From: Gemmatimonadales bacterium
GTDB lineage: Bacteria; Gemmatimonadota; Gemmatimonadetes; Gemmatimonadales; GWC2-71-9
Length of the DNA stretch: 64,000 bases
Assembly: GCA_025935995.1 (NCBI GenBank)
Contig: JAICUF010000001.1
Location: 22,484 to 86,483 of the forward strand
Direction of reading: 5' to 3'
In this document: positions 46,404 to 64,000 of the stretch, piece by piece
Layout of the letters: each line of letters starts with the position of its first letter
Numbering within the stretch: position 1 is the stretch's first letter
Made by a program: the position numbers and the translations under genes
The notes under the pieces: generated by a model
What the model was told of the DNA's origin: nothing
What the model saw: only the letters and a program-made list of their open reading frames with translations
Database searches by the model: none

Positions 46404-46559
46404 GCGGACTCCTCGACCACGGTGATGGCCTGGAGCCCTCCCCACGAGGAGGGCGGGTGCACTCTCCTCGGGAGTATGCGGGCGGACGACGGGTTTGTCT
46501 AGCGCGACCCGGCAGGGACCGGATGCGACGGGAGCGCGGCGTACCGGACTGCGGCGGAG

Positions 46560-46633
46560 TGGCCCCTGTGGGATTCGAACCCACGACCTGACGATTATGA
46601 GTCGTTTGCTCTAACCGACTGAGCTAAGGGGCC
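46560..46633 (-). tRNA. tRNA with CAT anticodon; elongator type, probably tRNA-Ile2 (lysidine-modified) rather than tRNA-Met
   Basis: Reverse complement folds as GGCCCCT TA GCTC AGTCGGTTA GAGC A AACGA CTCATAA TCGTC AGGTC GTGGG TTCGAAT CCCAC AGGGGCC A. It is not an initiator, because there is no GGG/CCC anticodon stem. The acceptor stem GGCCCCT and the D-arm closely match E. coli ileX as I recall it. Confidence 0.88.
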
Positions 46634-46653: not shown

Positions 46654-47799
46654 TCACGCGGCGTGTCGCCCCGGCCCGCCGGCGAGTGCCGCGACGCGGT
46701 CGGCGATCTCGAGGGCGCTCGTGAGCCCGGGCGATTCGATGCCGATCAGGTTCACCCACCCGGGGAGGCCGCGCGCCGACTCCTCCGCGATCACGAAATC
46801 CGGCGACACCGCGGGATCGGGGAGAATGCGGCGAGCGCGGATGCCCGCCAGATCCGGATGAAGTTCCTCCGCGGCGACCGAGGGGAGGTACCGGCGGGCA
46901 CCCTCGACGAACCGCTCGGTGCGGCCGGGATCCACCGAGTAGTCGAGGCGCCGATCGGGCAGAAACTCGACGTCCGGGCCAAGCCGGATCCCGCCGGAGA
47001 GATCGATCGTCACATGCGTGCCGAGGCCCGCGAGACCGGCGTGCGGCACCGGGTAGACCAGATGGCGAATACGGCCACGCCACGAATCCGCCAGGCGCAA
47101 ATAGCTTCCCTTCACATAGCGGAGCCGATAGCCGAGCGCATCGATGTCGAGCCCCATCCCGCCGGCCACCTGATCGGCGGCGAGCCCGGCGGCATTGACC
47201 ACGACGCCGGCTTGCACCTCGCCATCCGCTCCGGCCGGATCGCGGAACCGGACGCGATAGCCCCGAGGCGTGGGCTCCGCGGCCAGGTATTCATGCCCCC
47301 ACGCGAGCACGGCATCATCATCGGCCGCGGCATCGGCGAGACTCCGCATGAATCCGTGCGAATCGACGATGCCGGTGTCGGGCGAATAGAGCGCGCCCAC
47401 GGCGCGCACGAGCGGCTCGGCCTCCCGCAGCTCGTCGAGCGTCGCGCGGCGCAGGGCGGTCACGCCGTTCGCGTGGCCGCGGCGGTGGATGTCGTCCAGC
47501 ACCGCATCCTCATCGGCCGACACCGCGACGATGAATTTGCCGAGCCGCCGCGCTTCGACGCCGTTCGCGGCACACCACGCGTAGAGACTCCGGTTCCCGG
47601 CGACCGAGAACGTGGCCTTGAGCGAGCCGGTCGGGTAGTAGATCCCGGCGTGCACCACCTCGCTGTTCCGGCTGCTGGCCTCGCGACCGAAGGACGGATG
47701 CCGCTCCAGCAGCACGACGGACCGGCCGCCCCGGGCAAGCCGCATCGCCACGGCGAGGCCGACGACCCCACCCCCCACGACGACGGCGTCGCTCCGCAT
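46654..47799 (-). CDS. FAD-dependent oxidoreductase (DAO family; L-2-hydroxyglutarate/glycerol-3-phosphate oxidase-like)
   Basis: 381 aa: DAVVVGGGVVGLAVAMRLARGGRSVVLLER (GxGxxG)...SSRNSEVVHAGIYY...NLIGIESPGLTSAL. Confidence 0.75.
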   Translation of the reverse strand: MRSDAVVVGGGVVGLAVAMRLARGGRSVVLLERHPSFGREASSRNSEVVHAGIYYPTGSLKATFSVAGNRSLYAWCAANGVEARRLGKFIVAVSADEDAVLDDIHRRGHANGVTALRRATLDELREAEPLVRAVGALYSPDTGIVDSHGFMRSLADAAADDDAVLAWGHEYLAAEPTPRGYRVRFRDPAGADGEVQAGVVVNAAGLAADQVAGGMGLDIDALGYRLRYVKGSYLRLADSWRGRIRHLVYPVPHAGLAGLGTHVTIDLSGGIRLGPDVEFLPDRRLDYSVDPGRTERFVEGARRYLPSVAAEELHPDLAGIRARRILPDPAVSPDFVIAEESARGLPGWVNLIGIESPGLTSALEIADRVAALAGGPGRHAA

Positions 47800-47800
47800 G

Positions 47801-49666
47801 CTACATGAACTTCCGGAGCCACACCTCGAAGCAGAGGAGCGACCAGATGAGGAGCCGGTGGTTCCGGCGCGCGGCGGTGTGCTCGTCGATCACGCCCGCG
47901 ACGAACGCGGGATCGAGGAAGGCGCGGTACCGCGCCTGGGGGCTCGAGAGGAGCCGGCGAATGTAGTCGAGGCTTTCGCCGCGGTACCACGAATCGTACG
48001 GGCCGCTGAAGCCCTGCTTCCGCCGCTCGGCGATCTCCCGCGGAATCAGTCGTCCCATCGCCTTCCGGAGCACCGTCTTCCCCTCGGAGGACTCCCGCCA
48101 GCGCTGCCGCTTCACGATGTCGTCCTCGTCGATCGCCCCCTGCATGAGCGACCCCTCGACCTTGTAGCGGACCGGCACGCGCATGGCGAACTCGACCAGC
48201 CGGTCATCGAGAAAGGGGACGCGGCTCTCGAGCCCGTGGGCCATGCTCACCTTGTCCTCCACCACGAGGAGGCCGTGCAGGAAGGTCTTCGCCTCGAAGT
48301 AGAGGGAATGATTGATGTAGTCCTCGCTCGATGCGAGGGCGATCGGGTGGCGGTCGAAGACGCTCCGGAAGACGTCGAACGTCGAATGCCCCGAGAGGCG
48401 CCGCGCCACGTCGGGGCGGAAGAGCCGGGCCTTGTCCTCGTCGGCCACGAGGCGCTGCCAGAAGGCGTAGTAGTTCCGGAAGTATTCGTCGGCGGAGCGG
48501 CTGCCGGCCACCTGGTAGTAGCGCCAGGGATAGCCGCCGAAGAGCTCGTCGCCGCCGGCGCCGGACAGGACGACCTTCACGAAGCGGCTCGCGAGCCGCG
48601 CCACGTAGTAGTTGGGATACGACTGGCCGACTCTGAGATCCTCGAGGTGCCAGATCAGGTCGCCCATCACCTGCTCCATGTCGCCGGCGTGGAGCACGAC
48701 CTCGTAGTGCTCCGTCTTGAAGCGGTGCGCCATCATCTCCGCCGGCAGCCGCTCGTCGAAGCCGAGCTCGATGCCGGATGCGGAGGTGAGATCGAACCCG
48801 GCGGTGAAGGAGTGGATGCGGCCCAGGTGACTCGACGCGATCGCGGTGAGCGAGCCCGAATCCATCCCGCCGCTCAGGTAGCTCCCGACCGGCACGTCGC
48901 TCACCAGCTGGCGGACGGCCGCACCGCTGAAGCAGCGGAACAGCTCGTCCACGCATTCCTCTTCGGTGATCGCCAGCGGGTCCGAGCCGAACCGGTAGTC
49001 CCAGTATGGCACCGGCGCGCCCACCCGGCCGTTCTCGACCGTCAGCGTATGCCCGGGCTGGAGGAGCCGTACCCCCTCGAAGAGGGTCTCGTCGGTGAAG
49101 ATGTTCTGAAAGGTGAAGTACTGATGCAGCGCCGGCAGCGACACGTCGCGACGGAAGCCCGGCACGGTGAGGAGCGCCTTGATCTCCGACGCGAAGGCGA
49201 AGCGCGTGCCGTCGGTCCAGTAGTAGAGGGGCTTGATGCCGTAGCGGTCGCGCGCGAGGACGAGGCGCCGCGCCGCCGGCTCCCACACGGCGAAGGCGAA
49301 CATGCCGTTGAGCCGGTCGAGCGATGCGGGCCCCCACTCGCGCCAGGCCTCGAGGAGCACTTCGGTGTCGCAGGTGGAGCGGAAGCGGTGGCCGCGCGCG
49401 AGGAGATCGGCCCGGAGCTCCTGGTAGTTGTAGATCTCGCCGTTGTAGACGAGCGCCGCGCCGCCGTCGGGCGCGAGCATGGGCTGGTGGCCGCCGGAGG
49501 AGAGATCGATGATCGCGAGCCGGCGGTGGCCCAGGCCGGCCGAGCCGTCGGTCCAGTGACCTTCGCCGTCGGGGCCGCGATGCGCGATCGCGTCGGTCAT
49601 CCGCTTCAGGGTCTCGCGGGCGACCGGCTCGCCGCGCAGGTGGATCACGCCCGCGAGGCCGCACAT
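47801..49666 (-). CDS. asnB: Asparagine synthase (glutamine-hydrolysing) family amidotransferase, paralog 1
   Basis: ORF trimmed to ATG 49664-49666. Sequence MCGLAGVIHL... (Ntn Cys2)...GHRRLAIIDLSSGGHQPM...VYNGEIYNYQELR...DTEVLL...LNGMFAFAVW...SGGMDSGSL (PP-loop). Confidence 0.9.
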   Translation of the reverse strand: MCGLAGVIHLRGEPVARETLKRMTDAIAHRGPDGEGHWTDGSAGLGHRRLAIIDLSSGGHQPMLAPDGGAALVYNGEIYNYQELRADLLARGHRFRSTCDTEVLLEAWREWGPASLDRLNGMFAFAVWEPAARRLVLARDRYGIKPLYYWTDGTRFAFASEIKALLTVPGFRRDVSLPALHQYFTFQNIFTDETLFEGVRLLQPGHTLTVENGRVGAPVPYWDYRFGSDPLAITEEECVDELFRCFSGAAVRQLVSDVPVGSYLSGGMDSGSLTAIASSHLGRIHSFTAGFDLTSASGIELGFDERLPAEMMAHRFKTEHYEVVLHAGDMEQVMGDLIWHLEDLRVGQSYPNYYVARLASRFVKVVLSGAGGDELFGGYPWRYYQVAGSRSADEYFRNYYAFWQRLVADEDKARLFRPDVARRLSGHSTFDVFRSVFDRHPIALASSEDYINHSLYFEAKTFLHGLLVVEDKVSMAHGLESRVPFLDDRLVEFAMRVPVRYKVEGSLMQGAIDEDDIVKRQRWRESSEGKTVLRKAMGRLIPREIAERRKQGFSGPYDSWYRGESLDYIRRLLSSPQARYRAFLDPAFVAGVIDEHTAARRNHRLLIWSLLCFEVWLRKFM

Positions 49667-50670
49667 CAGCCGGTGCGGGCCTCGGCGGCGCGGATGCGCG
49701 ACGCCACCGCCTCCTTGTGCCCCTCGCGCCAGGCGATGAGCCGGCGAAGGCCTTCTTCCACGGGCGTCCGCGCCCGGAACCCGAGATCGCGCGCCGCCGC
49801 CTCGGTGAACCCCACGCGGCGCGTCACGAAGGTCTGGCCGGCGGGCTCGTAGCGGATCCCCAGGTGCTCGCTGCCCGTGAGCCGGAGCAGCATCTCGCAG
49901 ATTTCCCGGATCGTGGTCTCGACGCCGGCGCCGACGTTGTAGCACCGGTCGGTGGCGTCGGAGCCTGCGGCCAGCACGTTGCAGTCGGCCGCGTCCTCGA
50001 CGTAGATGAAGTCGTACGACTGCGTGCCGTCGCCGTAGACGATGGGCGGCTCGCCCCGGTCGATCCGATCGAGGATCTTCATCACGACGGCGACGTACGC
50101 GCCCATGTAGTCCTGCCGCGGCCCGTAGATGTTCATGTAGCGGAGGCCGACGTAGTCGAGGCCGTAGCGGTGGTGGTAGGCACGCGCCATGTGCTCGCCG
50201 GCGATCTTGGTGGCGCCGTAGAACGTGCGGTTGTTGTACGGGTGGTCCTCCGTCATCGGCACTTCGAGCGCGTCCCCGTAGACCGAGGCGGAGGACGAGT
50301 ACACGAGCTTCCGCACGCCCCGGAGCCGGCAGGCCTCGAGCACGTTGAAGGTGCCGCGGATGTTCACCTCGAAGGCCGACTGCGGATACTCGTGGCAGTG
50401 GAGCAGCCAGAGCGCCGCGAGGTGGAACACGACGTCGGTCTTCTCCAGCGCCTTCTGGAGGATGTCGGTGTGCAGGATATCGCCGCCCAGCTCGAAGACC
50501 CGCACGCGCGGGTCCTGGAGCGCGGCGTCGAGGTTGCCGATCGTCCCCCGCGTGAAGTTGTCGTAGACGACGATCTCGGCGACGTCCTCCCGGGTCAGCC
50601 GGTCCACGACGTGCGACCCGATGAGGCCCGCCCCGCCCACCACCACCACCCGCGCGCCACGCAGATCCAT
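49666..50670 (-). CDS. NAD-dependent sugar-nucleotide epimerase/dehydratase (extended SDR)
   Basis: 334 aa: VVVVGGAGLIGSH...VFHLAA...SSSASVYG...YGATKIAGE (YxxxK)...RYMNIYGPRQ. Confidence 0.85.
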   Translation of the reverse strand: MDLRGARVVVVGGAGLIGSHVVDRLTREDVAEIVVYDNFTRGTIGNLDAALQDPRVRVFELGGDILHTDILQKALEKTDVVFHLAALWLLHCHEYPQSAFEVNIRGTFNVLEACRLRGVRKLVYSSSASVYGDALEVPMTEDHPYNNRTFYGATKIAGEHMARAYHHRYGLDYVGLRYMNIYGPRQDYMGAYVAVVMKILDRIDRGEPPIVYGDGTQSYDFIYVEDAADCNVLAAGSDATDRCYNVGAGVETTIREICEMLLRLTGSEHLGIRYEPAGQTFVTRRVGFTEAAARDLGFRARTPVEEGLRRLIAWREGHKEAVASRIRAAEARTG

Positions 50671-50686
50671 GTGTCTCCCCGGTCGG

Positions 50687-51739
50687 TTAATGGCTGGGCT
50701 TCCGGCACCGGTACGAGAGCCCGGCGTCGCCCACGTCCTCGTGCAGCGTCTCCAGTCCCGCCGCGGCGATCCACTCGCGGATCTCGCCGGGGCGGTACCG
50801 ATAGGCGGTGACGGGACGGTACCAGTCGTAGTTCGTCATCACGTTCGTTTCCCAGTCCCAGTCGGCGTTGTAGAAGCACTTGAAGACGTTCCAGTAGAGC
50901 CAGCGCTGCACATCGAAGCGCCCCGCCGCGATGCCGAGCTCGGGAATGGCGACCGGGACATCCATCGTGAGCCCCTGCTCCGTCAGCGCCTGCCCGAAGC
51001 GGGTGAGCGCCTCGGAGAGGCGGAGCGCCTCGGGCTCCGACATCCGCGTCGCGAGCGACCGCAGATGATCGTCGGCGAACTCCCGGATCGGTCCCTTCAC
51101 CTTGTACACGTAGAACGCGAGCACGCCGCCGGGCCGCACCCGCGAGACGAGATGCTCGAAGCTCGCGCGGGGATCGAAGGTGTGGTGCAGCACCTGGTCG
51201 CAGGCGACGTAGTCGAAGAACTCGGGCGGGAACGGCAGGTTGGCGAGGTCGGCCTGCGCGAGGAGAAGTCGGGCGTGCGGCCCGACGTTCCGGGCCGCCG
51301 CGTCGACGGCGGTCGAGATGTCCACGCCGGCCACGAGGCCCGGCGCGTGGGCGAGATACCACGCCACGTCCCGGCCGACGCCGCAACCGGCGTCGAGCAC
51401 GCGCTGCTGGTCGCCCAGAAAGGCCGCGAATTCCGCCTCGTCGCGCCAGCCGTAGCGCTGGAGATACCAGCGGTGGTGGAAGTCACGGGTGGCGGCGTCG
51501 TGGCCGAAGGTGTCCACCCGGGCCCACTTGGTGGAGAAGGTGTCGCCGGTCGCGGCCTGCTCCGCGGGAAGCGCGCCGTCCCCGACGAATCGGGCGACGC
51601 CCTCCTCCACCGGATAGGACCGCCCACTCTCCGATTCGAGGCGGAGCGGCGGCCCGGGCACGACGCGCAGCGGCGTTCCGGTCCCCGGTTCGACCAGCTG
51701 TTCGAGCAGCCCGACCGCCTCCGGCGCCTCAGCGCGCAT
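50687..51739 (-). CDS. Class I SAM-dependent methyltransferase with a Trm112-like N-terminal segment and a Trp-rich C-terminal extension
   Basis: 350 aa. SAM motif I is VLDAGCGVGRD. Also ...FDYVACDQVLHH...RPGGVLAFYVY. The N-terminus is LLEQLVEPGTGTPL....SYPVEEGVARFV. The C-terminus is WLYWNVFKCFYNADWDWETNVMTNYDWYRP. It ends in TAA, a stop I saw only rarely among the called CDS. Confidence 0.75.
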   Translation of the reverse strand: MRAEAPEAVGLLEQLVEPGTGTPLRVVPGPPLRLESESGRSYPVEEGVARFVGDGALPAEQAATGDTFSTKWARVDTFGHDAATRDFHHRWYLQRYGWRDEAEFAAFLGDQQRVLDAGCGVGRDVAWYLAHAPGLVAGVDISTAVDAAARNVGPHARLLLAQADLANLPFPPEFFDYVACDQVLHHTFDPRASFEHLVSRVRPGGVLAFYVYKVKGPIREFADDHLRSLATRMSEPEALRLSEALTRFGQALTEQGLTMDVPVAIPELGIAAGRFDVQRWLYWNVFKCFYNADWDWETNVMTNYDWYRPVTAYRYRPGEIREWIAAAGLETLHEDVGDAGLSYRCRKPSH

Positions 51740-52940
51740 CCGCCGTCCGGAATGCCTGCGTGAGGTGATGGATCAGGCGCTCGACGACGCGGTCCTGCTC
51801 CTCGTCGGTCATGCCGGCATAGAGGGGGAGCGTGAGGGAGAGCTGGTCTCCGGCCCACGCCCCCGGGAGGTCCATCGGCCGGTAGCCGAAGGTGCGTGCG
51901 TAATAGTCGAGGGCGTGCACGGCGTGCGTGCCCTGGCGGGTGGCGATCCGCTCCTCCTCGAGCGCGTGCATCACCTGGTTCCGGACCGCGTTCCCGCGGG
52001 CGATTTCGGCTTCGTCCAGTCCGTCGGTCTCGAGGCGGCACACGTACGACTGGTAGGAATGGCGGTGGCCTTCCGGCTCGATGGGTGGAATCAGGCCCGC
52101 GACGCCCGCCAGGAGCACGTCGTACCGCTTCGCGCGGGCGATGCGGTCGGCCAGAATGCCCGGGAGCTTGCCGAGCTGCGCCACGCCGACGGCGGCCTGC
52201 AGGTCGGTCATGCGGTAGTTGTAGCCGACCTTGTCGAAAACGGGCAGCAGCGCGGCGCCGCGGGCTCCGTGCCGCGCGTGGTCCGACTTCGAGGCGCCAT
52301 GATCGCGGAGCGAGCGTGCACGCCGCGCCTTGCCCGGGTCGGATGTGGTGTACATCCCGCCCTCGCCGGTGGTGATGGCCTTCCGCGGATGGAACGAGAA
52401 GGCGCCGCCGCCGCCGAAGGTGCCCACATGCCGCCCGCAGTACAGGGTGCCGAGGGCGCAGGCCGCGTCCTCCACCACCGCGAGCGACCGCCGCCGCGCG
52501 ACATCGAGGATCGAGCCCATCTCCGCGGCGAGCCCGAAGAGGTGGACCGGCATGACGGCGCGGGTCCGCGGCGTCCGCCGTCGCTCGACCTCCTCCGCCG
52601 TGATATTGAACGTGACGGGCGAGACGTCCGCCAGCACGGGCGTGGCGCCGCAGTAGATCACCGCGTTGGCCGAGGCGACCCAGGTGAACGCCGGCACGAT
52701 CACTTCGTCGCCCGGGCCGACTCCTTCGGCGAGGAGCGCGAGGTGCAGACCGGTGGTGCACGAGGTGCAGGCGACCGCCTCGGGCAGGCCGGTGAAGTGA
52801 CGGAACCCGTCCTCGAACGCCGCGACCTGCGGTCCCTGCACCACCCAGCCCGAGGCGAGCACCGCGGCGACGGCCTGTGCCTCGGCCTCATCGAAGATGG
52901 CGCGGGTGATCGGGATGGGCGGCGGCCGATGATCGGTCAT
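51729..52940 (-). CDS. DegT/DnrJ/EryC1/StrS family sugar aminotransferase (PLP-dependent)
   Basis: ORF trimmed to ATG 52938-52940. Sequence GPQVAAFEDGF...AVACTSCTTGLHLAL...DEVIVPAFTWVASANAV...PVHLFG...VVEDAACALG...AFSFHPRKAITTGEGGM (the PLP Lys)...NYRMTDLQAAVG. Confidence 0.9.
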   Translation of the reverse strand: MTDHRPPPIPITRAIFDEAEAQAVAAVLASGWVVQGPQVAAFEDGFRHFTGLPEAVACTSCTTGLHLALLAEGVGPGDEVIVPAFTWVASANAVIYCGATPVLADVSPVTFNITAEEVERRRTPRTRAVMPVHLFGLAAEMGSILDVARRRSLAVVEDAACALGTLYCGRHVGTFGGGGAFSFHPRKAITTGEGGMYTTSDPGKARRARSLRDHGASKSDHARHGARGAALLPVFDKVGYNYRMTDLQAAVGVAQLGKLPGILADRIARAKRYDVLLAGVAGLIPPIEPEGHRHSYQSYVCRLETDGLDEAEIARGNAVRNQVMHALEEERIATRQGTHAVHALDYYARTFGYRPMDLPGAWAGDQLSLTLPLYAGMTDEEQDRVVERLIHHLTQAFRTADAR

Positions 52941-53515
52941 GGTGCGTCCGCGTAGATGAGGGAGACGTCGGCGCCGCTCACTTCGACGCGACCGACCACC
53001 CGGCAGGGCGTGCCGTAGGCGATGGCGTAGTCGGGCAGGTCGCGGTTCACGAGCGAGTGGGCGCCGACGAGGCAATGCCGCCCGATGCTCACGCCGCTCG
53101 TCACGATGCTGCACGGGCCGAGGTAGCAGTGGTCGCCGATCACGACCGGGGCGCGGTCGTACGGCGCGCGGCCGCCCGACAACGCCCAGCGCACCGAATC
53201 GTGGGTGTAGATCTGCACACCGGCCGAGATGCTGCACGTCGCGCCGATCCGGAGGCCGCCGGAGCCGTCCAGCACGGTGCCCGGTCCGATCCAGGTTCCC
53301 TCGCCAACCTCGACATCGCCGAGCACGAGCGACTGGTCGTAGATGCTGCTGCCGGGGCCGAAGCCCAGGTCGCGCGCCCGCTCCCATCGGTCCACGACGT
53401 AATCGGCGAGCGGAAGCGACCGCTGCCACCGCTCGCGTACTTCGACCGAGCGCGCGGCGTGCAGGGCGCGCAACGCGGTGAGGAGGTCCTGCGGCGCGCC
53501 GCCGGCCGGCGTCAC
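52937..53515 (-). CDS. Left-handed beta-helix (hexapeptide-repeat) acetyltransferase
   Basis: 192 aa from GTG 53513-53515, a GTGA overlap with the wzx stop. Hexapeptide repeats are VGEGTWIGPGTVLDG..LRIGATCSISAGVQIY...VVIGDHCYLGPCSIVTSGVSIGRHCLVGAHSLV. Confidence 0.8.
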   Translation of the reverse strand: MTPAGGAPQDLLTALRALHAARSVEVRERWQRSLPLADYVVDRWERARDLGFGPGSSIYDQSLVLGDVEVGEGTWIGPGTVLDGSGGLRIGATCSISAGVQIYTHDSVRWALSGGRAPYDRAPVVIGDHCYLGPCSIVTSGVSIGRHCLVGAHSLVNRDLPDYAIAYGTPCRVVGRVEVSGADVSLIYADAP

Positions 53516-54969: not shown

Positions 54970-55002
54970 GGCGACAAGTCTAAGCGCGGCCCGGGCCGGT
55001 CG

Positions 55003-56589: not shown

Positions 56590-56614
56590 GCATTCCTCCC
56601 TTGACGGCACATCG

Positions 56615-57685
56615 GTGGCGCGCGACGTTTCGCGCTCCATGAACCCAGCCGCGGGACCCATCGCCGAGCCGGCCGAGCCGCCGCGACAGACCTCCCTGCT
56701 CCGCGTCGCCGCGGCAGTCGCCGCGCGCTGGCGCCTCATCGCGCTGTGCGGCCTCCTCGGCGGCGCCGTCGCCGCCACGTGGGCGCTGCTCGCACACCCG
56801 CGCTACCGCGCCACCGCGAAGTTCGCCCTCGAAGAGCGCACCCTGAACCCTGGCGCCGCCGGCGGCCTCGCCGCACTGGCCGGACAGCTCGGCGCGGGAA
56901 CGCTGGGCGGCACGCGGTCGCTCCAGTTCTATGCCGACGTGCTGGTCGGCCGCGACGTGCTCACCCGCGTGGCCCTGGACTCGTTCGCCGACCCCGCGGA
57001 CCGCGCACGGCGGCTGCCGCTCATCGACATCCTGCACATCGGCGGCGCCGACAGCGCGCACCGCATCAGCAACGCGGTCGACTTCCTGTCGGCCAAGGCG
57101 GTCGGCACGACGACCAACGACCGTACCGGCACCATCACCCTCAACGTCACCCTGCCCGACGCGCAGCTGGCGGCCGACGTCGCGCAGCGGCTCTACGCCC
57201 ACCTCGAGCAGTTCAACTTCGAGACCCGCCGCTCTGCCGCCTCCGAGCGGCGCCGCTTCGCCGAGCGCGCCGTCGCCGGCTCCCGCGCCGAGCTGACGCA
57301 GGCCGAGGGGGCGCTGCGCGCCTTCCTCGAAGCGAACCGGGCCGGGGTGAACGATATCCCCCGTCTCGCCTTCCAGCGCGAGCGCCTGAACCGCCGGATC
57401 GAGCTCCTCACCGACGAGTACGGCCGCCTGTCGCGCGAGCTGCAGGATGCGCAGATCGACGAAGTGCGCGATACTCCCGTCTTCACGCTGGTGCAGGCGC
57501 CCGTCGCGCCGGTCTACCGCGACTTTCCGCGGCGCACCCGGATGACGATCACGGGGGCCGTCCTCGCGGCCGCCCTCGCCGTCGCCTGGGCGGCGTTCAG
57601 GGCAACGGGCTGGTCGGTGCGGGAGCTGGATCCCGCGGGGTACCAGCAGTTCCGCTCGTCCCTCCGGCGCCGACCCTCCCGCTAG
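56615..57685 (+). CDS. Polysaccharide co-polymerase / chain-length determinant (Wzz-like, PCP family)
   Basis: 356 aa. N-terminal TM helix RWRLIALCGLLGGAVAATWALLA followed by YRATAKFALEE. A long coiled periplasmic region follows. The C-terminal TM helix is MTITGAVLAAALAVAWAAF. The start is GTG 56615 or ATG 56639. Confidence 0.65.
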   Translation: MARDVSRSMNPAAGPIAEPAEPPRQTSLLRVAAAVAARWRLIALCGLLGGAVAATWALLAHPRYRATAKFALEERTLNPGAAGGLAALAGQLGAGTLGGTRSLQFYADVLVGRDVLTRVALDSFADPADRARRLPLIDILHIGGADSAHRISNAVDFLSAKAVGTTTNDRTGTITLNVTLPDAQLAADVAQRLYAHLEQFNFETRRSAASERRRFAERAVAGSRAELTQAEGALRAFLEANRAGVNDIPRLAFQRERLNRRIELLTDEYGRLSRELQDAQIDEVRDTPVFTLVQAPVAPVYRDFPRRTRMTITGAVLAAALAVAWAAFRATGWSVRELDPAGYQQFRSSLRRRPSR

Positions 57686-59267
57686 CCCCGCTCCCGCCGG
57701 CCAGCGTCACCAGCGCGAGCGTCACGACCGCCGCGGTGACGTCGGGCTGCTCGAAGTAGCTGTCGAAGATTCCCAGCACCACCAGGAACGGCACGGCGAA
57801 CCCGAGCGTGGCCCCGGCGGCGCGCACGCGGAGCTCCGCTTCGGTGTCGCGCCACCGGCGGAAGCCCGCGCGCGCGAGCAGCCCCAGGAAGATCGCGACG
57901 ACCGCCGAGCCGGCGATGCCGTACTCCCCCACGATGCCGATGACGCTGCTGAACGGATTCGTGAGCGCGCCGCTCCGGAACTGCGCGGTGGCCACGATGT
58001 CGGCCGTGTACAGGTCGTACGCGACCGAGCGATAGGCGGGTGACGTCCACGACGGGATGAAGTCGGGCAGCCGCTGGGCTTCCTTGAAGAGCACGTCGGT
58101 GGCGCGGATCGTCGCCGCGCGCGTGGCGTAGCTGCCGGGGCCGTAGCCGATCCAGGTGTCGAGATCGCCGCGGCCCAGGAGCTGGCCGGTCCGGAGCACG
58201 AGCTGCACCTTCGGGTTGATCTTGGCCAGCACGATGTAGGGACGCCACAGCCCGTCGATGACGATGCGGGCCGCGCGCACGGCCAGCACCGGGCCCACCG
58301 TCACGGCGACGATGAGCGCGCCCCACCCCAGGAAGCGGCGCCACCGTCGCGCGAGGGCCGGCCATACCACGGCGGCACCGAAGATGAGCCCCGGCGGAAC
58401 GGCCGACAGGATCACGTGCTTCGAGTCGGTCATGAGGAAGACGAAGACGACGACCGCCAGGAGGCCCGCGTGCGTCCGTTTCCGCGCGCCGACGTTGAGC
58501 GCCACCAGGAAGACGGCGAACAGCATGAGCGCGATCCCCAGGTGGTGCGCGCTCGGCGTGCTGCCCGACGTGAGATCGGACGCTTCGCCGGCCGCGAGGA
58601 AATTCCGGATCAGCGCGACGCGCGTCACCTGCAGCGGGATCAGCGGCACGCTGTACGCTTCGGGCATGCCGGCCGTGATCGGCTTGATGAGCGCGGGGGC
58701 CAGCTGGGACGCGGCGAGTGCCGCTGCCGTCACGACGATGGCGCCGATCTCGCCCGCGCTCCACGCCGCGGCGCGCGCGACGAAGAGGAGGAGCCACGGC
58801 GCGAGGAAGGTGAGCGTGAAGACCGGGAGCGACCAGAGGTCGGTCTGGTCCCCGAGGTTCGCGAGCCAGCTCGTGAGCGTCCAGAGGAGGACGGCGAGCA
58901 GTGCCCAGTCGAGCGCGTCGAGCGGCCGCACGATGCGCGCTCCGCCGTACACCAGGACGAAGTAGCCCAGCGAGAGGAGATAGGCCACGAACCCGATCTC
59001 GGCCGAGGGCAGATACGCGGTGACGAGGGGAAGCAGGACGAGGAGCCGCGTACGCCCCGAGAGGACGATGCACGCCGCGGCGGCCAGCAGCACCGGCAGT
59101 GCCACGCCGAGGGGCATCGTGGCGAGCTGCACGTTGGGATACGCGACGACACCGATGAGGAGCGCCGGCACCGTCAGGATGAGCGCCAGACGGCGCCATC
59201 CGGGGCCGATCGGATCGGCCCCGCGGTCGCGCGGCGCCGCCGCTCCGTCGATCGGGACCGCCGTCAC
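57597..59267 (-). CDS. O-antigen polymerase/ligase-like (Wzy-type) polytopic membrane protein
   Basis: About 556 aa with at least 10 helices and a large loop containing GYGPGSYATRA. The position between the GT and Wzz fits a Wzy role. Start set at GTG 59265-59267, a GTGA overlap with the GT4 stop. The ORF-track start is 59276. Confidence 0.55.
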   Translation of the reverse strand: MTAVPIDGAAAPRDRGADPIGPGWRRLALILTVPALLIGVVAYPNVQLATMPLGVALPVLLAAAACIVLSGRTRLLVLLPLVTAYLPSAEIGFVAYLLSLGYFVLVYGGARIVRPLDALDWALLAVLLWTLTSWLANLGDQTDLWSLPVFTLTFLAPWLLLFVARAAAWSAGEIGAIVVTAAALAASQLAPALIKPITAGMPEAYSVPLIPLQVTRVALIRNFLAAGEASDLTSGSTPSAHHLGIALMLFAVFLVALNVGARKRTHAGLLAVVVFVFLMTDSKHVILSAVPPGLIFGAAVVWPALARRWRRFLGWGALIVAVTVGPVLAVRAARIVIDGLWRPYIVLAKINPKVQLVLRTGQLLGRGDLDTWIGYGPGSYATRAATIRATDVLFKEAQRLPDFIPSWTSPAYRSVAYDLYTADIVATAQFRSGALTNPFSSVIGIVGEYGIAGSAVVAIFLGLLARAGFRRWRDTEAELRVRAAGATLGFAVPFLVVLGIFDSYFEQPDVTAAVVTLALVTLAGGSGASGRVGAGGTSGTAGTPRDPAPAPTSPLP

Positions 59268-60256
59268 GTGAGGCACGCGCGGTAGATGTCGAGCAGCCGG
59301 CGCACCATCGCCTCCGAGGTATACCGATCGGGGAGGAGTGACGGACGGAGATCGGGCGCGGGCGGCAGGGCGGCCACGGCGTCGGCCAGGCGGGGCGGAT
59401 CACGCGGCACGATGGCGCCCATGGCCGCGCGATCGATCACTTCCGGCACATCCCCGACCCGGACACTCACCACCGGCACGCCGCACGCGAGCGCCTCCTT
59501 GGCCACGTTGGGCGCGCCTTCGCTGTCCGAGGTGACGAGCAGGCAGTCGGCGGCACGGTAGTGCCAGGGCATGTCGTCGGCAGGCACCGACCGCGCCACC
59601 AGCAGGTGCGGCGCGCGACCCCGGCGCACGAGCTCGTCGCGGACCGCCTCGGCGAGGTCGAGCCGCTTGCTCGCCTGCCCCGCGCTGTTGACGAAGGCGA
59701 CGACCAGGCCTTCGGCCGGCAGGCCCAGCCGCGCCCGCGCCTCCGCTCGCGAGCCCGGGGCGAAGAGCCGGGTGTCCACACCGTTGGGAAGCACATCGCA
59801 CTTCGCGCGCGCGGCCGGGGAGAGCCGCCGCCGCATCGCTTCGCTCTTGACGATCACCCGGCGCGCGAGGGCGGCGAAGAGCTGGGTGACGCCGATGCCG
59901 AGGGTGCTCTTGAGGGTCCGTCCTCCCCGGCCGTCGGCCTGGCCGTTGATGTCGTCGCCGCACAGGGTGACGAGATACGGCGCGCCCGCGAAGGCCGCCG
60001 CCAGCGGCGTGTATCCATAGTGGCAGTGCACGAGCGCCGGCCGGAACTCCCGCACGGCGCGCATCACGCGCCGGCGGCCCACGAAGTAGTCCCCCTCCCC
60101 GCGGTCCGCCGCGATCACCTCGAGCGCCATGTCCACGCCCGCGGCGCGCATCGCCTCCACCTGGCGACGCACGAAGATCCCGAAATACGGCCGCGTCGGA
60201 GACGGATACATGTTGGTGACTGCGAGCACACGGAGCGGCGCCTCCGCTCCGCTCAT
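59264..60256 (-). CDS. Glycosyltransferase family 4 (GT-B fold)
   Basis: ORF trimmed to ATG 60254-60256. Sequence LRVLAVTNMYPSPTRPYFGIFVRRQVEAM...LPNGVDTRLF...LLVTSDSEGAPNVAKEALACGVPVVS..VGD, which carries the EX7E-like motif. Confidence 0.85.
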   Translation of the reverse strand: MSGAEAPLRVLAVTNMYPSPTRPYFGIFVRRQVEAMRAAGVDMALEVIAADRGEGDYFVGRRRVMRAVREFRPALVHCHYGYTPLAAAFAGAPYLVTLCGDDINGQADGRGGRTLKSTLGIGVTQLFAALARRVIVKSEAMRRRLSPAARAKCDVLPNGVDTRLFAPGSRAEARARLGLPAEGLVVAFVNSAGQASKRLDLAEAVRDELVRRGRAPHLLVARSVPADDMPWHYRAADCLLVTSDSEGAPNVAKEALACGVPVVSVRVGDVPEVIDRAAMGAIVPRDPPRLADAVAALPPAPDLRPSLLPDRYTSEAMVRRLLDIYRACLT

Positions 60257-62163
60257 GCCGCGACCGCCGCCCCCGCGCGGGCAACCGGCAGCGGCTCGGC
60301 GGCCGGCCAGCGGCGTTCGAGCACCACCGCCGCCCAGACGCCGAGGCAGAGGAGCGACCAGAGTCGGGTGCCGTGATCCGCGCCGGCCGTGTGCTCGGCG
60401 TACACCCGGCGGGCAGCCGCGGGATCGATCATCGCCGCCATCGCCGTATCCCGCCGGAAGACGAACTCCTCGAGCGCACCTGCCAGCGGTCCCCGCATCC
60501 AGCCGCTCACCGGCACGCCGAAGCCGGTCTTCTGGCGGTGCAGCACTTCCCGGGGAAGGAGTCGCGCCACCAGCGGGCGCAGCAGCGCCTTGAGCTGCCC
60601 GCCGGGAAACGCCGTCGCCTCGGGAAGGCTCAACGCAAACTCGACGACGTCCACGTCGAGGAACGGCGACCGCGCCTCCAGGGATGCGGCCATCGTCGCG
60701 GTGTCCACCTTCGGGAGGTAGTCGTTCGGGAGGTAGGTCTCGAAGAAGGTGCGACGGAGCGCATCGGCATCGGGCAGCGCGCGGAAGCGATCCAGTCGCT
60801 CGGCGTAGATGTGCTCGGCCCGATGCCCCGCAACGGGGCCTCGCAGGAGCTCCGCGCGGGCGCGCGGGCCGAAGCCCATCCGGTTCCGGTAGCTGTCCCT
60901 GATCGGCTCCGCCCCGTACTCGAAGAGCGCGCCGGCTCGGCGAAGCCAGCCCTCGCGCGTCGCTCCGCTGGTGGCGTTGCGGAGCAGACGGCGCACGGGA
61001 GCCGGCGTCCATCGCCGGTAGCGCTGGCCCAGCCGCACCCCCCGGAAGGTCGCATATCCGAAGAAGGCCTCGTCCCCGCCGTCGCCCGTGAGCGCGACCG
61101 TGATCTCGCGCCGCGCGGCGCGGGCCACGTCGTACGACGGCAGGATCGAAGAGTCGCCGAACGGCTCGCCCAGCTCCGCGAGGAGCATGGGGAGCGGCGC
61201 GGCGGAGAGCGCCGGGACTTCCACGAGCCGATGCTCCAGACCGTAGCGTGCCGCGACAAGCGCGGCTACCGATCGCTCATCGTAGCCCGAGCCCGCGGTC
61301 CCGGCCGTCACCGCAACGAGTCGGCCCTCGTGCTCCTCCGCCGCGAGGGCCGCCACCAGGCTCGAGTCGAACCCCGCGCTCAGGAAGAGGCCGAGCGGCA
61401 CGTCGCTTTCGAGCCGGCGGCGCACCGCCTGCCGGAGCAGGCGCTCCAGCTCGATCGCGGCGTCGCCCGCCGGCATTGCCGGATCGGCCGGCGCAGCGGG
61501 CACCTGCCAGAACCTCCCGGTGCGCACGGCGCCGGCCCGCCACTCGAGGAATCCGCCGGGCGGCAGCTTCTCCACGCCCTCGAGCATCGCGTGCTCGAAC
61601 GGCACGACGGTGTGACCGAGATAGCAGTCGAGCGCGCTCCGGCTCACCGGGGGCGCGTGCTCGAGCATGGGAAGCAGCGCGCCCACGGTCGACGCGAAGG
61701 CGATGCGGTCGGGCGAAAGCGCATAGGCGAGCGGCTTCTTGCCCAGCGGATCCCGGGCGAGCACCAGCCGGCGCTCGTCGGGATGCCAGAATGCCGCGGC
61801 GAACATGCCGCGAAGCCGCGCGAAGACGTCGGGGCCCCATGCCTCGTACCCCGCGAGGAGCACTTCGGTGTCGGAGCGGGTGACGAAGTGCCGGCCCGCC
61901 GCCTCGAGGTCCGCCCTCAGCTCCCGGAAATTGTAGATCTCGCCGTTGTACACGACGACGACGCGCGTGCGCTCGCTGGTCATCGGCTGGTCCGCGCGCT
62001 CGGAGAGATCGAGCACGCGGAGCCGGCAGTGGACGAGCGCGCACGGCCCCTCGCGCCACTCGTGGCGCGCGTCCGGCCCGCGATGGCTCAGCGCCGCCGC
62101 GACGTCAGCGAGCGACGCCGGCGCCCCGCGACGAAGATCGACCACACCCCCGAAGCCGCACAT
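60253..62163 (-). CDS. asnB: Asparagine synthase family amidotransferase, paralog 2
   Basis: ORF trimmed to ATG 62161-62163. Sequence MCGFGGVVDL...HCRLRVLDLSERADQPM...VYNGEIYNFRELR...DTEVLL...LRGMFAAAFW...LSAGFDSSLV. Confidence 0.9.
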   Translation of the reverse strand: MCGFGGVVDLRRGAPASLADVAAALSHRGPDARHEWREGPCALVHCRLRVLDLSERADQPMTSERTRVVVVYNGEIYNFRELRADLEAAGRHFVTRSDTEVLLAGYEAWGPDVFARLRGMFAAAFWHPDERRLVLARDPLGKKPLAYALSPDRIAFASTVGALLPMLEHAPPVSRSALDCYLGHTVVPFEHAMLEGVEKLPPGGFLEWRAGAVRTGRFWQVPAAPADPAMPAGDAAIELERLLRQAVRRRLESDVPLGLFLSAGFDSSLVAALAAEEHEGRLVAVTAGTAGSGYDERSVAALVAARYGLEHRLVEVPALSAAPLPMLLAELGEPFGDSSILPSYDVARAARREITVALTGDGGDEAFFGYATFRGVRLGQRYRRWTPAPVRRLLRNATSGATREGWLRRAGALFEYGAEPIRDSYRNRMGFGPRARAELLRGPVAGHRAEHIYAERLDRFRALPDADALRRTFFETYLPNDYLPKVDTATMAASLEARSPFLDVDVVEFALSLPEATAFPGGQLKALLRPLVARLLPREVLHRQKTGFGVPVSGWMRGPLAGALEEFVFRRDTAMAAMIDPAAARRVYAEHTAGADHGTRLWSLLCLGVWAAVVLERRWPAAEPLPVARAGAAVAA

Positions 62164-64000
62164 CAGCCGGCCGCCCGAAGCGCCGCCGGCGCCGCCGCCG
62201 CGCCGTCCAGCGACCTGAGCCAGGTCTCGAGCACGTAGAGTGAGAGGAGCTGCCGCGGCCGCGACCGGCCCCCGTCGCGCACGGCAGTGAGAAGCCCGGT
62301 GACGGCGTCGCCGGCGAGCAGGTCCGGAATCCGCGCGTCGCGGCCGGTGAGATACGCGGGTGCGTCGCGTTCGACCCACGACGCGAACCAGCGATCGAGC
62401 GGTGTCGAGAACCCGAGTTTCCGGCCCAGCCGGCCGCGCGGCCCGAGCAGACTCGGCCGCAGCTCGGCGGGAATCAGCGGCGCGACGGCGCGCCGGTAGA
62501 GCCACTTCCGCTCCCCCAGCGCGGAGACCTTGTAGCGGCTCGGCATCCGCTCCAGCAGCGCGAGGAGCTCGAGATCGAGGAAGGGGACCCTGAGCTCGAC
62601 CGAGGAACGCATCGACGTGCGGTCGGCTACGGTGAGCAGGTCGTCCGCGAGCGAAAGCCGCGCATCGGCGATGAGCAGCCGATTGAGGGAATCATCGTCC
62701 GGTCCGTCCGGGAGCCAGCGGCGAACCGGGTCCACCAGCGCCGAGGGATCGAGCGACGCACGGCTCAGCGCCACGGCCTCCGCGGGTCCGAACACCGCCA
62801 GCGTCTCCGCGAATCGCTCCGCCTCTCCCCCGGCGGCCGCCAGGCGCCGCGCCCGCGCGACGCGATCACTGGACGCGAACCGCTCCGGCAGGTGCGCGAG
62901 CAGGGGCGACGCGGCGTGGAGCGCGCCGGCCCACCGCTCCGCCGTGTGCCGGGGATAGCCGCCGAGCGGCTCGTCGGCTCCCTGGCCCGTGAGCACCACC
63001 TTGTGGGTCCGCGCCACCCGCTCGCAGAGGAGATCGAGGAGCAGCACCCCCGAGTTGGCGACCGGCTCACCCAGCGAGGCGATCTGCGCGGGCCAGCGCG
63101 CGAGATACTCGGCCTCGGATACGGCAACCGTCTCGAGCGGAACGCCCAGTGCATCCGCCGCCGCTCGCGCGGCGCCAAGCTCATCGGGCGCGCCCGGATC
63201 GCTGAAACCGATCGCGAATGCCTGCGGAGCCGCGGGCAGTCCATCGCGCATGAGGCCGGTCACGACCGTCGAGTCGACGCCGCCGGAGAGGAGCGAGCCC
63301 ACCGGCACGTCCGACATGAGCTGGCGGCGGACCGCAGCCCGGAGCCCGCCCCGGATCGCCTCTTCCCATCCCCGCCCGGTGTCCGGCACGGTTGCCGGCG
63401 CGAACCGCGGCGTGAACGCACGGAAGACCGGCGTGGCGGCCGGCGCCGCGAGCGACAGGCTGCAGCAATGTCCCGGCGGCACCTTCCATGTGTTCCGGAA
63501 GATCGTCGCGGGAGCGGGAATGAAGCGGTACACGAGATACTGCCCGACCGCATCCTCCCGGATCGTCTCGTCGGCCAGTCCCGCCGCGCGCGCGGCGCTC
63601 AGCTCGCTCGCGAACCAGGTGGTGCCGTCCCTGTGCCCGACATAGAGCGGCTTGGCGCCGACGGGGTCGCGCGCGAGCCAGACCCGTCCGTCCCCGCCAT
63701 CGCGCCCGTCGAACAGCGCGAAGGCGTAGATCCCGTTCAGCCGCTCGAGCACCCCCGGCCCCCACTCCTCCCACCCGTGGACGATGACCTCCGTGTCGGC
63801 ACGCGAACGGAAGCGGTGGCCGGCGCGCTCCAGCTCGGCCCGGAGCGTCAGGTGATTGTAGATCTCGCCGTTGTAGACCAGCCAGACCGAGCTGTCCTCG
63901 TTGCTCATCGGCTGGTCGCCGCCGGCGAGGTCCACGATGCTGAGCCGCCGGTGCCCGAGCGCACCGAGTCGATCCGCGAGGAAGCGGCAGCCGGCGCCGT
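62163..64000 (-). CDS. asnB: Asparagine synthase family amidotransferase, paralog 3 (N-terminus beyond the right edge of the window)
   Basis: The frame stays open upstream of the ORF-track start. Codons before 63935 read ...LGHRRLSIVDLAGGDQPM, the conserved GATase-2 segment. So the Cys2 start lies outside the window. Also ...VYNGEIYNHLTLR...DTEVIV...LNGIYAFALF...LSGGVDSTVV. Confidence 0.87.
   Translation of the reverse strand, partial: GAGCRFLADRLGALGHRRLSIVDLAGGDQPMSNEDSSVWLVYNGEIYNHLTLRAELERAGHRFRSRADTEVIVHGWEEWGPGVLERLNGIYAFALFDGRDGGDGRVWLARDPVGAKPLYVGHRDGTTWFASELSAARAAGLADETIREDAVGQYLVYRFIPAPATIFRNTWKVPPGHCCSLSLAAPAATPVFRAFTPRFAPATVPDTGRGWEEAIRGGLRAAVRRQLMSDVPVGSLLSGGVDSTVVTGLMRDGLPAAPQAFAIGFSDPGAPDELGAARAAADALGVPLETVAVSEAEYLARWPAQIASLGEPVANSGVLLLDLLCERVARTHKVVLTGQGADEPLGGYPRHTAERWAGALHAASPLLAHLPERFASSDRVARARRLAAAGGEAERFAETLAVFGPAEAVALSRASLDPSALVDPVRRWLPDGPDDDSLNRLLIADARLSLADDLLTVADRTSMRSSVELRVPFLDLELLALLERMPSRYKVSALGERKWLYRRAVAPLIPAELRPSLLGPRGRLGRKLGFSTPLDRWFASWVERDAPAYLTGRDARIPDLLAGDAVTGLLTAVRDGGRSRPRQLLSLYVLETWLRSLDGAAAAPAALRAAG

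Follow-up and report, generated by a model that had tools for sequence, protein, structure and literature searches.

The window analysed here is the 64,000-nucleotide stretch at positions 22484-86483 of contig C220 (C220:22484-86483) in the metagenome-assembled genome (MAG) of a Gemmatimonadales bacterium, an assembly of 222 contigs and 2.86 Mb that is 87% complete. Its right-hand part carries a run of polysaccharide genes, among them three paralogous members of the asparagine synthase family, here called AsnB1, AsnB2 and AsnB3. This run is best explained, in our view with good likelihood, as belonging to a complete Wzx/Wzy-dependent locus for a surface polysaccharide (O-antigen or exopolysaccharide, EPS), of which it forms the left two-thirds and in which the AsnB proteins would form uronamides. 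Genes were called from a frame plot of third-position GC combined with open reading frames (ORFs), because at 72% G+C a list of ORFs was of no use by itself, and then scanned against Pfam and NCBIfam. The features are as follows, the coordinates being those of the window, continued beyond its end.

46559..46633, minus strand: tRNA with CAT anticodon (ARAGORN); left boundary of the cluster
46654..47799, minus: g1, DAO-family FAD oxidoreductase, L-2-hydroxyglutarate oxidase-like, last gene of the operon (PF01266, 5e-54)
47801..49666, minus: AsnB1, 621 aa, start MCGLAG, PP-loop SGGMDS (Pfam/NCBIfam)
49666..50670, minus: g3, short-chain dehydrogenase/reductase (SDR) of the UDP-HexNAc(A) (HexNAc, N-acetylhexosamine) 4-epimerase type, motifs SSSASVYG and YGATK (PF01370)
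50687..51739, minus: g4, class I S-adenosylmethionine-dependent methyltransferase (MT), ~350 aa, Trm112-like N-terminus (Methyltransf_11/25/23)
51729..52940, minus: g5, first DegT sugar aminotransferase, DegT1 (PF01041, 4e-109)
52937..53515, minus: g6, first left-handed beta-helix (LbH) sugar N-acetyltransferase, LbH1 (Hexapep)
53512..54969, minus: g7, Wzx flippase with some 12 or more hydrophobic segments (Polysacc_synt, Polysacc_synt_3)
55003..56589, minus: g8, predicted GT-C-fold membrane glycosyltransferase of an uncharacterised family (AlphaFold2 and Foldseek)
56639..57685, plus: g9, Wzz-like co-polymerase with two transmembrane helices and without a kinase domain (PF02706, 1e-6)
57597..59276, minus: g10, membrane protein assigned to the Wzy/WaaL superfamily, probably the polymerase (AlphaFold2 and structural match)
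59264..60256, minus: g11, GT4 glycosyltransferase 'a' (GT4a), overlapping the AsnB2 stop (Glyco_trans_1_4, Glyco_transf_4)
60253..62163, minus: AsnB2, 636 aa, start MCGFGG, PP-loop SAGFDS (Pfam/NCBIfam)
62163..64097, minus: AsnB3, 644 aa, start MCGIAG at 64097, 97 nt past the window end (Pfam/NCBIfam)
64100-65206, minus: WecB/WbpI-like non-hydrolysing 2-epimerase (Pfam/NCBIfam)
65292-66500, plus: GT4b (Pfam/NCBIfam)
66488-67624, minus: DegT2 (Pfam/NCBIfam)
67713-68885 (L001 1753-2925), minus: h3, CE4-like lipoprotein of 390 aa (CE4-like motifs)
68903-69415, minus: LbH2 (Pfam/NCBIfam)
69415-70455 (L001 3455-4495), minus: GFO/IDH/MocA 3-dehydrogenase, best match UDP-GlcNAc 3-dehydrogenase
70478-72124, minus: Bac_transf priming transferase (Pfam/NCBIfam)
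72243-73400, minus: GT4c (Pfam/NCBIfam)
73424-74578, plus: GT4d (Pfam/NCBIfam)
74612-77134, plus: Wza-like exporter (Poly_export, SLBB), with hflX next

The cluster continues beyond both the window and its contig. The final 141 nt of C220 recur without a difference at the start of contig C83, and the GT4 gene that spans the joint reaches its full length of 402 aa. An identical gene order is found on a single contig of a genome from the same genus (G004:C143), namely HflX, Wza, GT4d, GT4c, the priming transferase, GFO, LbH2, h3, DegT2, GT4b and WecB, followed by AsnB3, AsnB2, GT4a, Wzy, Wzz, g8, Wzx, LbH1, DegT1, MT, SDR, AsnB1 and DAO. From the overlap and this single-contig order the full cluster is taken to measure approximately 30.5 kb and to comprise 23 genes, bounded by the tRNA and hflX; its arrangement is kept in four other Gemmatimonadales MAGs. 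The genes to the left of the tRNA (a DNA ligase fragment, a CMAS-type methyltransferase, MurB and stressosome genes) are unrelated to the cluster. One locus that is syntenic with the Gemmatimonadales cluster, at 72-95% protein identity, bears the GenBank title 'Bacillota bacterium MAG294' (L004, JBLMWC010000143.1); this label is probably a taxonomic error, the genome falling in the same genus as the source MAG.

The components of a Wzx/Wzy pathway are encoded together in the cluster: a priming phosphoglycosyltransferase, Wzx, Wzy, a Wzz polysaccharide co-polymerase and a Wza outer-membrane polysaccharide exporter. The priming transferase scores 332 bits against TIGR03025 (cut-off 296) and is the sole Bac_transf/EPS_sugtrans enzyme of this kind in the genome, while the Wza-like exporter (Poly_export) is a protein of 840 aa with five SLBB domains. 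The original prediction, made from the window alone, had noted only one recognisable glycosyltransferase and neither a priming transferase nor Wza. Both statements are literally true of the window sequence, but three more GT4 genes, the priming transferase and the exporter lie just beyond it, and a further glycosyltransferase is hidden within it, as described below. Since the flank past the window and contig end holds these genes, their apparent shortage is an edge artefact: extension to the right reveals an ordinary complement of glycosyltransferases together with a priming enzyme and an exporter, the outcome named in one half of the refutation that came with the original prediction, and the supposed anomaly falls away. 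The other genes that had been listed are all present, each at its predicted place, including the Wzy-like protein.

Structure prediction was needed for g8 and g10 because sequence searches were uninformative. The former had no match in Pfam, NCBIfam or PDB sequence searches, the latter no family match in Pfam or NCBIfam, and comparison of g8, g10 and h3 with the PDB, and with Pfam up to an E-value of 10, gave nothing useful. Homologues of g8 form approximately 814 clusters, each of around 520 aa and without a Pfam or NCBIfam model. Its AlphaFold2 (AF2) model, built from 112 sequences, has a predicted local distance difference test score (pLDDT) of 95.4 and a predicted template modelling score (pTM) of 0.95, and Foldseek ranks 1-28 are all GT-C enzymes, STT3, AglB, PglB, ArnT, DPY19, AftA, ALG9 and EmbB among them, the best matches being the oligosaccharyltransferases and ArnT. 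Asp31, located in the first periplasmic loop, is invariant, and the protein also shows a GEAERY motif and, at its C-terminus, a small periplasmic domain. The GT-C membrane fold and an acidic residue conserved at this place are the two attributes by which the GT-C superfamily is recognised, and on its modelled fold g8 is a GT-C-fold glycosyltransferase; the window therefore holds a second, hidden enzyme of this class. A GT-C gene, PMT_2, is also present in a locus of another phylum that contains an AsnB1-type gene (L038).

For g10, all 81 homologs are annotated as hypothetical and the AF2 model has a pLDDT of 85.7. The sole significant match in the structural search was WaaL (7TPG, E-value 2.4e-4), with FtsW a weak second. 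Because WaaL is the only significant match, the model places g10 in the Wzy/WaaL superfamily, as the original prediction had proposed, probably as the polymerase. The tail of this protein is of low complexity (Gly/Ser/Thr/Pro) and model confidence is low there. The Wzz-like (plus strand) and Wzy-like (minus strand) ORFs converge, their 3' ends overlapping by 89 nt (57597-57685).

The three AsnB paralogs, which had been described as full length, are all intact and Cys-initiated, including the one that runs past the window end. Each is matched along its full length by PF00733 (Asn_synthase, 1e-64 to 1e-89) and by GATase_7/GATase_6 (GATase_7 at 1e-40 to 1e-48). The assembly contains no other full-length PF00733 gene, and since all three lie within 17 kb their clustering is more than chance. 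Pairwise identities of approximately 32-34% mark them as old paralogs, and each has its own ortholog in four related MAGs at 51-89% identity (75-89% for the AsnB1 orthologs in related loci). The glutaminase residues Cys1, Arg49, Asn74, Gly75, Glu76 and Asp98 and the PP-loop are kept in all three and in their orthologs, the AsnB2 loop having SAGFDS instead of SGGxDS. At the position of Glu348 in E. coli AsnB stand Ala (AsnB1), Asp (AsnB2) and Gln (AsnB3), replacements that do not vary among the orthologs of each paralog; the TTIR segment of the E. coli enzyme is not conserved. Glu348 and this Thr-Thr-x-Arg segment are needed for formation of beta-aspartyl-AMP in E. coli AsnB. Because the glutaminase residues and PP-loop are kept while Glu348 and TTIR are replaced, the paralogs are predicted to be active but not aspartate-specific.

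In maximum-likelihood trees whose reference members were AsnB and WbqG of E. coli and two amidotransferases of XrtA systems, the three paralogs each have a clade of their own with 100/100 support, distinct from E. coli AsnB and from the genuine XrtA-system amidotransferases. The model for E. coli-type AsnB, NF006949, gives the three paralogs 290, 222 and 243 bits, compared to a cut-off of 499. Among 41 relatives the family varies from 0 to 5 copies per genome and is accessory in the lineage, since five have none, three of these being 97-98% complete; in approximately 10 of the 41, two or three copies lie close together on one contig. Orthologs of AsnB3 occur in 11 of 301 Gemmatimonadota genomes, in every case among glycan genes. 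These results support the sequence-based assignment of AsnB1-3 as glycan-locus amidotransferases rather than housekeeping enzymes, in agreement with the original prediction.

A strict pairing of AsnB3 with WecB across the phylum was considered and rejected, the neighbours being variable (GT4b-like, GT4a-like, WecB, DegT, Wzy). Four of the 11 AsnB3-type matches (L024, L025, L027 and L030) contain one in-frame TGA each, which could reflect either alignment past the true stop at the C-terminus or pseudogenes. In a glycan region of one relative (G025:C1; L013 11074-12924) a third AsnB-like gene lacks the N-terminal Cys, starts MGFVV and is very divergent (branch length 4.6 in the tree); it may encode a family member that has lost glutaminase activity.

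A link to uronamides is provided by WbqG of E. coli O121, which, according to King 2010 as cited in PMC7468200, is required for formation of N-acetylgalactosaminuronamide (GalNAcAN). Its gene was located in the O121:H19 genome, where the Prokaryotic Genome Annotation Pipeline (PGAP) names it only 'asparagine synthase'. It lies between wzy and two GT4 genes, in a locus that begins with a TviB dehydrogenase and an epimerase. Identity of WbqG to AsnB1-3 is 29-32%, with AsnB2 at 32%. AsnB2 and WbqG have a common signature, EPF[AG]DSS...GD[AG]GDE, and group at 83/83, the placement of AsnB1 and AsnB3 not being resolved; by sequence, AsnB2 is the most WbqG/WbpS-like of the three. As for AsnB3, its signature EPVA..G...GQG[GA]DE is shared by those AsnBs whose genes, in several relatives, directly precede an extra WecC-like dehydrogenase. 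Finally, the cluster contains Wbp-type analogues by family, GFO/IDH/MocA for B, DegT for E, LbH for D and WecB for I (199 bits compared to 210), although all score below the equivalog cut-off and WbpA was not found in the assembly. This set, together with the WbpP-like epimerase, two DegT and two LbH proteins, fits the amidated, N-acetylated amino-sugar polymer that had been predicted, the uronamides being only probable.

The genes around AsnB1 form a group of their own. The SDR g3 resembles 4-epimerases and not 4,6-dehydratases, the closest solved structures being the UDP-GlcNAc 4-epimerases 6DNT, WbgU and WbpP, and is 90-98% identical among related loci. The best NCBIfam matches of DegT1 are PseC and ArnB, and those of LbH1 the NeuD/PglB/VioB and WcaF families, in each case below cut-off. 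AsnB1 itself belongs to a group of more than 8000 matching sequences that spans Acidobacteriota, Nitrospirota, Armatimonadota and other phyla at no less than 60% identity. Eight AsnB1-type contexts outside the lineage were inspected, seven on contigs from metagenomes or MAGs, of which two are near-identical, and one on an Agrobacterium plasmid. An SDR of approximately 328 aa accompanies the AsnB1-type gene in all eight and a DegT was called nearby in seven, and the neighbourhoods usually also hold a methyltransferase of ~350 aa and an LbH or formyl N-acyltransferase. One such cross-phylum methyltransferase has a Trm112p match, and the N-terminus of g4 is Trm112-like. Export in these loci is by Wzm/Wzt or by Wzx, and on the Agrobacterium plasmid the AsnB1-type gene comes just after genes for a TviB dehydrogenase and an epimerase.

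The same five genes surround and include AsnB1 in the present cluster, giving a cassette of SDR (~328 aa), DegT (~390 aa), Trm112-type methyltransferase (~350 aa), AsnB (~625 aa) and LbH or formyl N-acyltransferase. By analogy, AsnB1 might be the signature enzyme of an uncharacterised cross-phylum cassette that makes a 4-amino hexuronamide (a 2,3,4-triamino-2,3,4-trideoxy sugar), with amidation at C-6 coming first, a reading that we regard as tentative and rather doubtful. Its chemical basis is that a 4-keto uronic acid would decarboxylate, as in ArnA and UXS, while a 4-keto uronamide would not, so that prior amidation at C-6 would permit oxidation and transamination at C-4. A sugar of this type, 2,3,4-triamino-2,3,4-trideoxy-galacturonamide, caps the Bordetella O-chain (PMC2615507). 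If the cassette reading is true, the polymer would carry three chemically distinct carboxamide sugars and be further modified by the GT-C family of g8, and g1 would recycle 2-hydroxyglutarate from the WbpB-type dehydrogenase of the locus.

Several points weigh against a uronamide-forming locus. No UDP-sugar or other nucleotide-sugar 6-dehydrogenase that would supply the uronic acid was found in the cluster or in the 87%-complete assembly. The grouping of WbqG with AsnB2 has only moderate support, and the tree does not resolve along its backbone. The synthetase-site signature of AsnB1 is unlike that of any characterised enzyme and its acceptor is the least certain of the three. The epimerase-like character of the SDR leaves the source of a keto sugar for DegT1 without explanation. 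A literature search on Gemmatimonas polysaccharide chemistry gave nothing relevant.

Of these, the missing 6-dehydrogenase was dropped as evidence against uronamides. A conserved adjacent pair of dehydrogenases, one Ugd/TuaD-like and one of the WecC/TviB HexNAc type, is carried by 39 of the 41 relatives and is present in every same-genus genome of at least 80% completeness. In a same-genus genome the pair belongs to a 14-kb region, none of whose genes has a counterpart in the present assembly. Since this entire region is absent, the 13% of the genome that the assembly lacks is the best explanation for the missing enzyme, one that fits without amounting to proof. The pair sits in a core operon with GFO/IDH/MocA, DegT and LbH genes (locus L007 at G004:C150:5768-11291, and 38 other relatives), a second WbpA/B/E/D-like set outside the variable locus that perhaps serves lipid A or core sugars.

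The alternative that survives best, though still unlikely, is that the AsnBs amidate other carboxylates, such as that of an amino-acid or dicarboxylic N-acyl substituent carried by an amino sugar, or of a lactyl or pyruvyl group; the polymer would then not have to contain uronamides. The lack of a 6-dehydrogenase in cluster and assembly would suit this idea, as would the differences among the synthetase sites of the three paralogs and between the signatures of AsnB1 and WbqG. However, the genes that might supply such carboxylates (pyruvyl transferase, FemAB/VimA-type, ATP-grasp and acyl-CoA ligase) were not found in the cluster, and AsnB genes repeatedly adjoin HexNAc 6-dehydrogenases, both in relatives and on the Agrobacterium plasmid. 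Moreover, the characterised glycan-locus AsnB homologues, as far as they are covered in PMC7468200 and in King 2010 as cited there, all make uronamides.

It is considerably less probable that at least one AsnB, most plausibly AsnB1, is a housekeeping asparagine synthetase, or a peptidoglycan meso-diaminopimelate (meso-DAP) amidotransferase of the kind of LtsA and B. subtilis AsnB, which happens to lie in the glycan locus. That the assembly has no other full-length AsnB-family genes, that all three exceed the cut-off of the generic 'asparagine synthase' model TIGR01536 and that AsnB1 is unusually conserved across phyla speak for such a role. Against it stand the five relatives devoid of any AsnB gene, three of them nearly complete, the replacement of Glu348 and the TTIR segment, and the O-antigen-like setting of the AsnB1-type gene in all eight outside contexts. 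In addition, AsnB1-3 are all translationally coupled to glycan genes, and the phylogeny that had been called for does not place any of them with housekeeping AsnB, contrary to the other half of the refutation named in the original prediction.

An EPS system of the exosortase (XrtA/PEP-CTERM) type, in which multiple AsnB-like genes are typical and with which the original prediction had associated the locus, is hardly credible here: TIGR03108 is the first or second NCBIfam match of all three AsnBs, the Wza-like protein and priming transferase give sub-threshold XrtA-system matches and the AsnB of one relative (G037) adjoins a TIGR03087-like glycosyltransferase, but the TIGR03108 scores of 462, 417 and 365 bits are all below 60% of the cut-off of 816.9, PF09721 exosortase has no match in the genome (an absence that, at 87% completeness, is not absolute), tblastn with proteins of a canonical XrtA locus finds no homolog of XrtA, FemAB, XrtA deacetylase, PCP or export protein, and canonical XrtA loci look different, their bona fide amidotransferases falling in their own clade.

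Two further proteins bear on how a uronamide-containing polymer would be made. The lipoprotein h3 has a signal sequence ending in LLAGC, motifs RVDDC and HSRYH and a sub-threshold match to Polysacc_deac_1, and on these sequence features is probably a periplasmic deacetylase working on the polymer after export. The oxidoreductase g1 scores 228 bits against the L-2-hydroxyglutarate oxidase model NF008726 (cut-off 299), has 3DME and Drosophila L2HGDH (8W75) as best PDB matches and is retained in the corresponding place in L004 and L005. To regenerate NAD+, 3-dehydrogenases of the WbpB type reduce 2-oxoglutarate to D-2-hydroxyglutarate (D-2-HG), and removal of this product helps lipopolysaccharide synthesis (PMC8651671). 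The protein g1 could thus be a locus-encoded 2-hydroxyglutarate recycling partner for the GFO/IDH/MocA enzyme. Stereochemistry argues against this idea, since the WbpB product is the D form (PMC8651671) and g1 resembles L-2-HG oxidases and dehydrogenases. Of the glycosyltransferases, GT4a stays beside AsnB2 even in a rearranged locus (L006).

For the route proposed here, gene content, folds, catalytic residues, conservation and context links are what was found, and the substrates and order of steps are what we infer from them. The Bac_transf phosphoglycosyltransferase would start the repeat unit on undecaprenyl phosphate, the four GT4 enzymes would extend it and Wzx would flip it, after which the Wzy/WaaL-like protein would polymerise the units with the aid of the Wzz-like co-polymerase. 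On the periplasmic side the predicted GT-C enzyme g8 might add or transfer a sugar and the CE4-like lipoprotein h3 trim acetyl groups, the Wza-like protein exporting the polymer. The sugars would be N-acetylated di- or tri-amino hexoses and hexuronic acids derived from two gene sets, one WbpB/E/D/I-like (3-dehydrogenase, DegT, LbH and 2-epimerase) and the other composed of the WbpP-like epimerase, DegT, LbH and methyltransferase. Each AsnB is predicted to be an active class-II amidotransferase, in which the N-terminal Cys would hydrolyse glutamine and the ammonia be channelled to the PP-loop domain, which would adenylate a sugar carboxylate and convert it to a carboxamide. The likeliest substrate would be C-6 of a nucleotide-linked N-acetyl-hexosaminuronic acid. 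The acceptors presumably differ: AsnB2 is WbqG/WbpS-like, AsnB3 is of a type linked to WecB- and WecC-like genes and AsnB1 belongs to the conserved sugar-tailoring cassette.

The present annotation is the first to cover a surface-polysaccharide locus in Gemmatimonadales reasonably completely; these bacteria are members of a phylum that is abundant in soil and whose envelope glycans are unstudied, and it predicts a polymer of low charge that is heavily N-acetylated and amidated. A family of ~800 clusters without a Pfam model is assigned by its fold to the GT-C glycosyltransferases, and WbpB-type dehydrogenases gain a possible locus-encoded 2-hydroxyglutarate oxidase partner. The g8 family and the five-gene AsnB1 cassette, the latter a good target for enzymology, are the parts most worth following.

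Among known systems, the XrtA/PEP-CTERM amidotransferases of TIGR03108 have the same domain architecture as AsnB1-3 and a motif, EPFADSS...GDGGDE, similar to that of AsnB2, and are likewise encoded in EPS loci alongside a Wza-like exporter, a co-polymerase and a deacetylase. They differ in that the model's cut-off is not reached here, exosortase and FemAB are lacking from the assembly and their clade is separate. WbpS of Pseudomonas aeruginosa O6, WbqG and PGN_1234 of Porphyromonas gingivalis are closer. All are N-terminal-Cys AsnB-family proteins encoded beside wzy and GT4 genes in Wzx/Wzy O-antigen loci, and the present cluster has a WbpP/WbqB-like epimerase and family-level analogues of the Wbp-type B/E/D/I set. 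The P. gingivalis WbpS, PGN_1234, lies in a Wbp locus and amidates 2,3-diNAc-GlcA, the product of the Wbp pathway (PMC7468200). Each of these loci has one such AsnB gene, compared to three here, and in O121 the 6-dehydrogenase is inside the locus whereas the present cluster has none.

Three wbpS-like genes are found in the psc1 cluster of Rubrivivax gelatinosus, syntenic in Thauera MZ1T and Rhodoferax, and transposon insertions in two of them alter the biofilm or colony phenotype (PMC3684757). As here, a single EPS cluster contains three scattered asparagine-synthase genes alongside GT4s, wzx, wzy and a polysaccharide deacetylase; unlike here, psc1 measures 75 kb, has exosortase-type (FemAB) components and other sugar-precursor genes, including those for heptose, and is betaproteobacterial. 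The wbm locus of Bordetella bronchiseptica and B. parapertussis, compared by gene description, also has three amidotransferase genes in one polysaccharide locus. Its wbmC, wbmI and wbmZ encode glutamine-dependent enzymes and its O-antigen consists of 2,3-diacetamido-galacturonic acid and the corresponding uronamide (PMC2615507). Further common elements are several SDRs, WbmF/G/H in the case of wbm (PMC2279256), aminotransferases, N-acyl or formyl transferases, a methyltransferase and periplasmic modification of the polymer after its assembly, which falls to the deamidase WbmE in wbm and would fall to the CE4-like lipoprotein here. Bordetella belongs to a different phylum and uses an ABC transporter in place of Wzx/Wzy/Wzz/Wza. 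The presence of three AsnB-type amidotransferases in a single glycan locus, as seen in the Gemmatimonadales cluster, already has published precedent.

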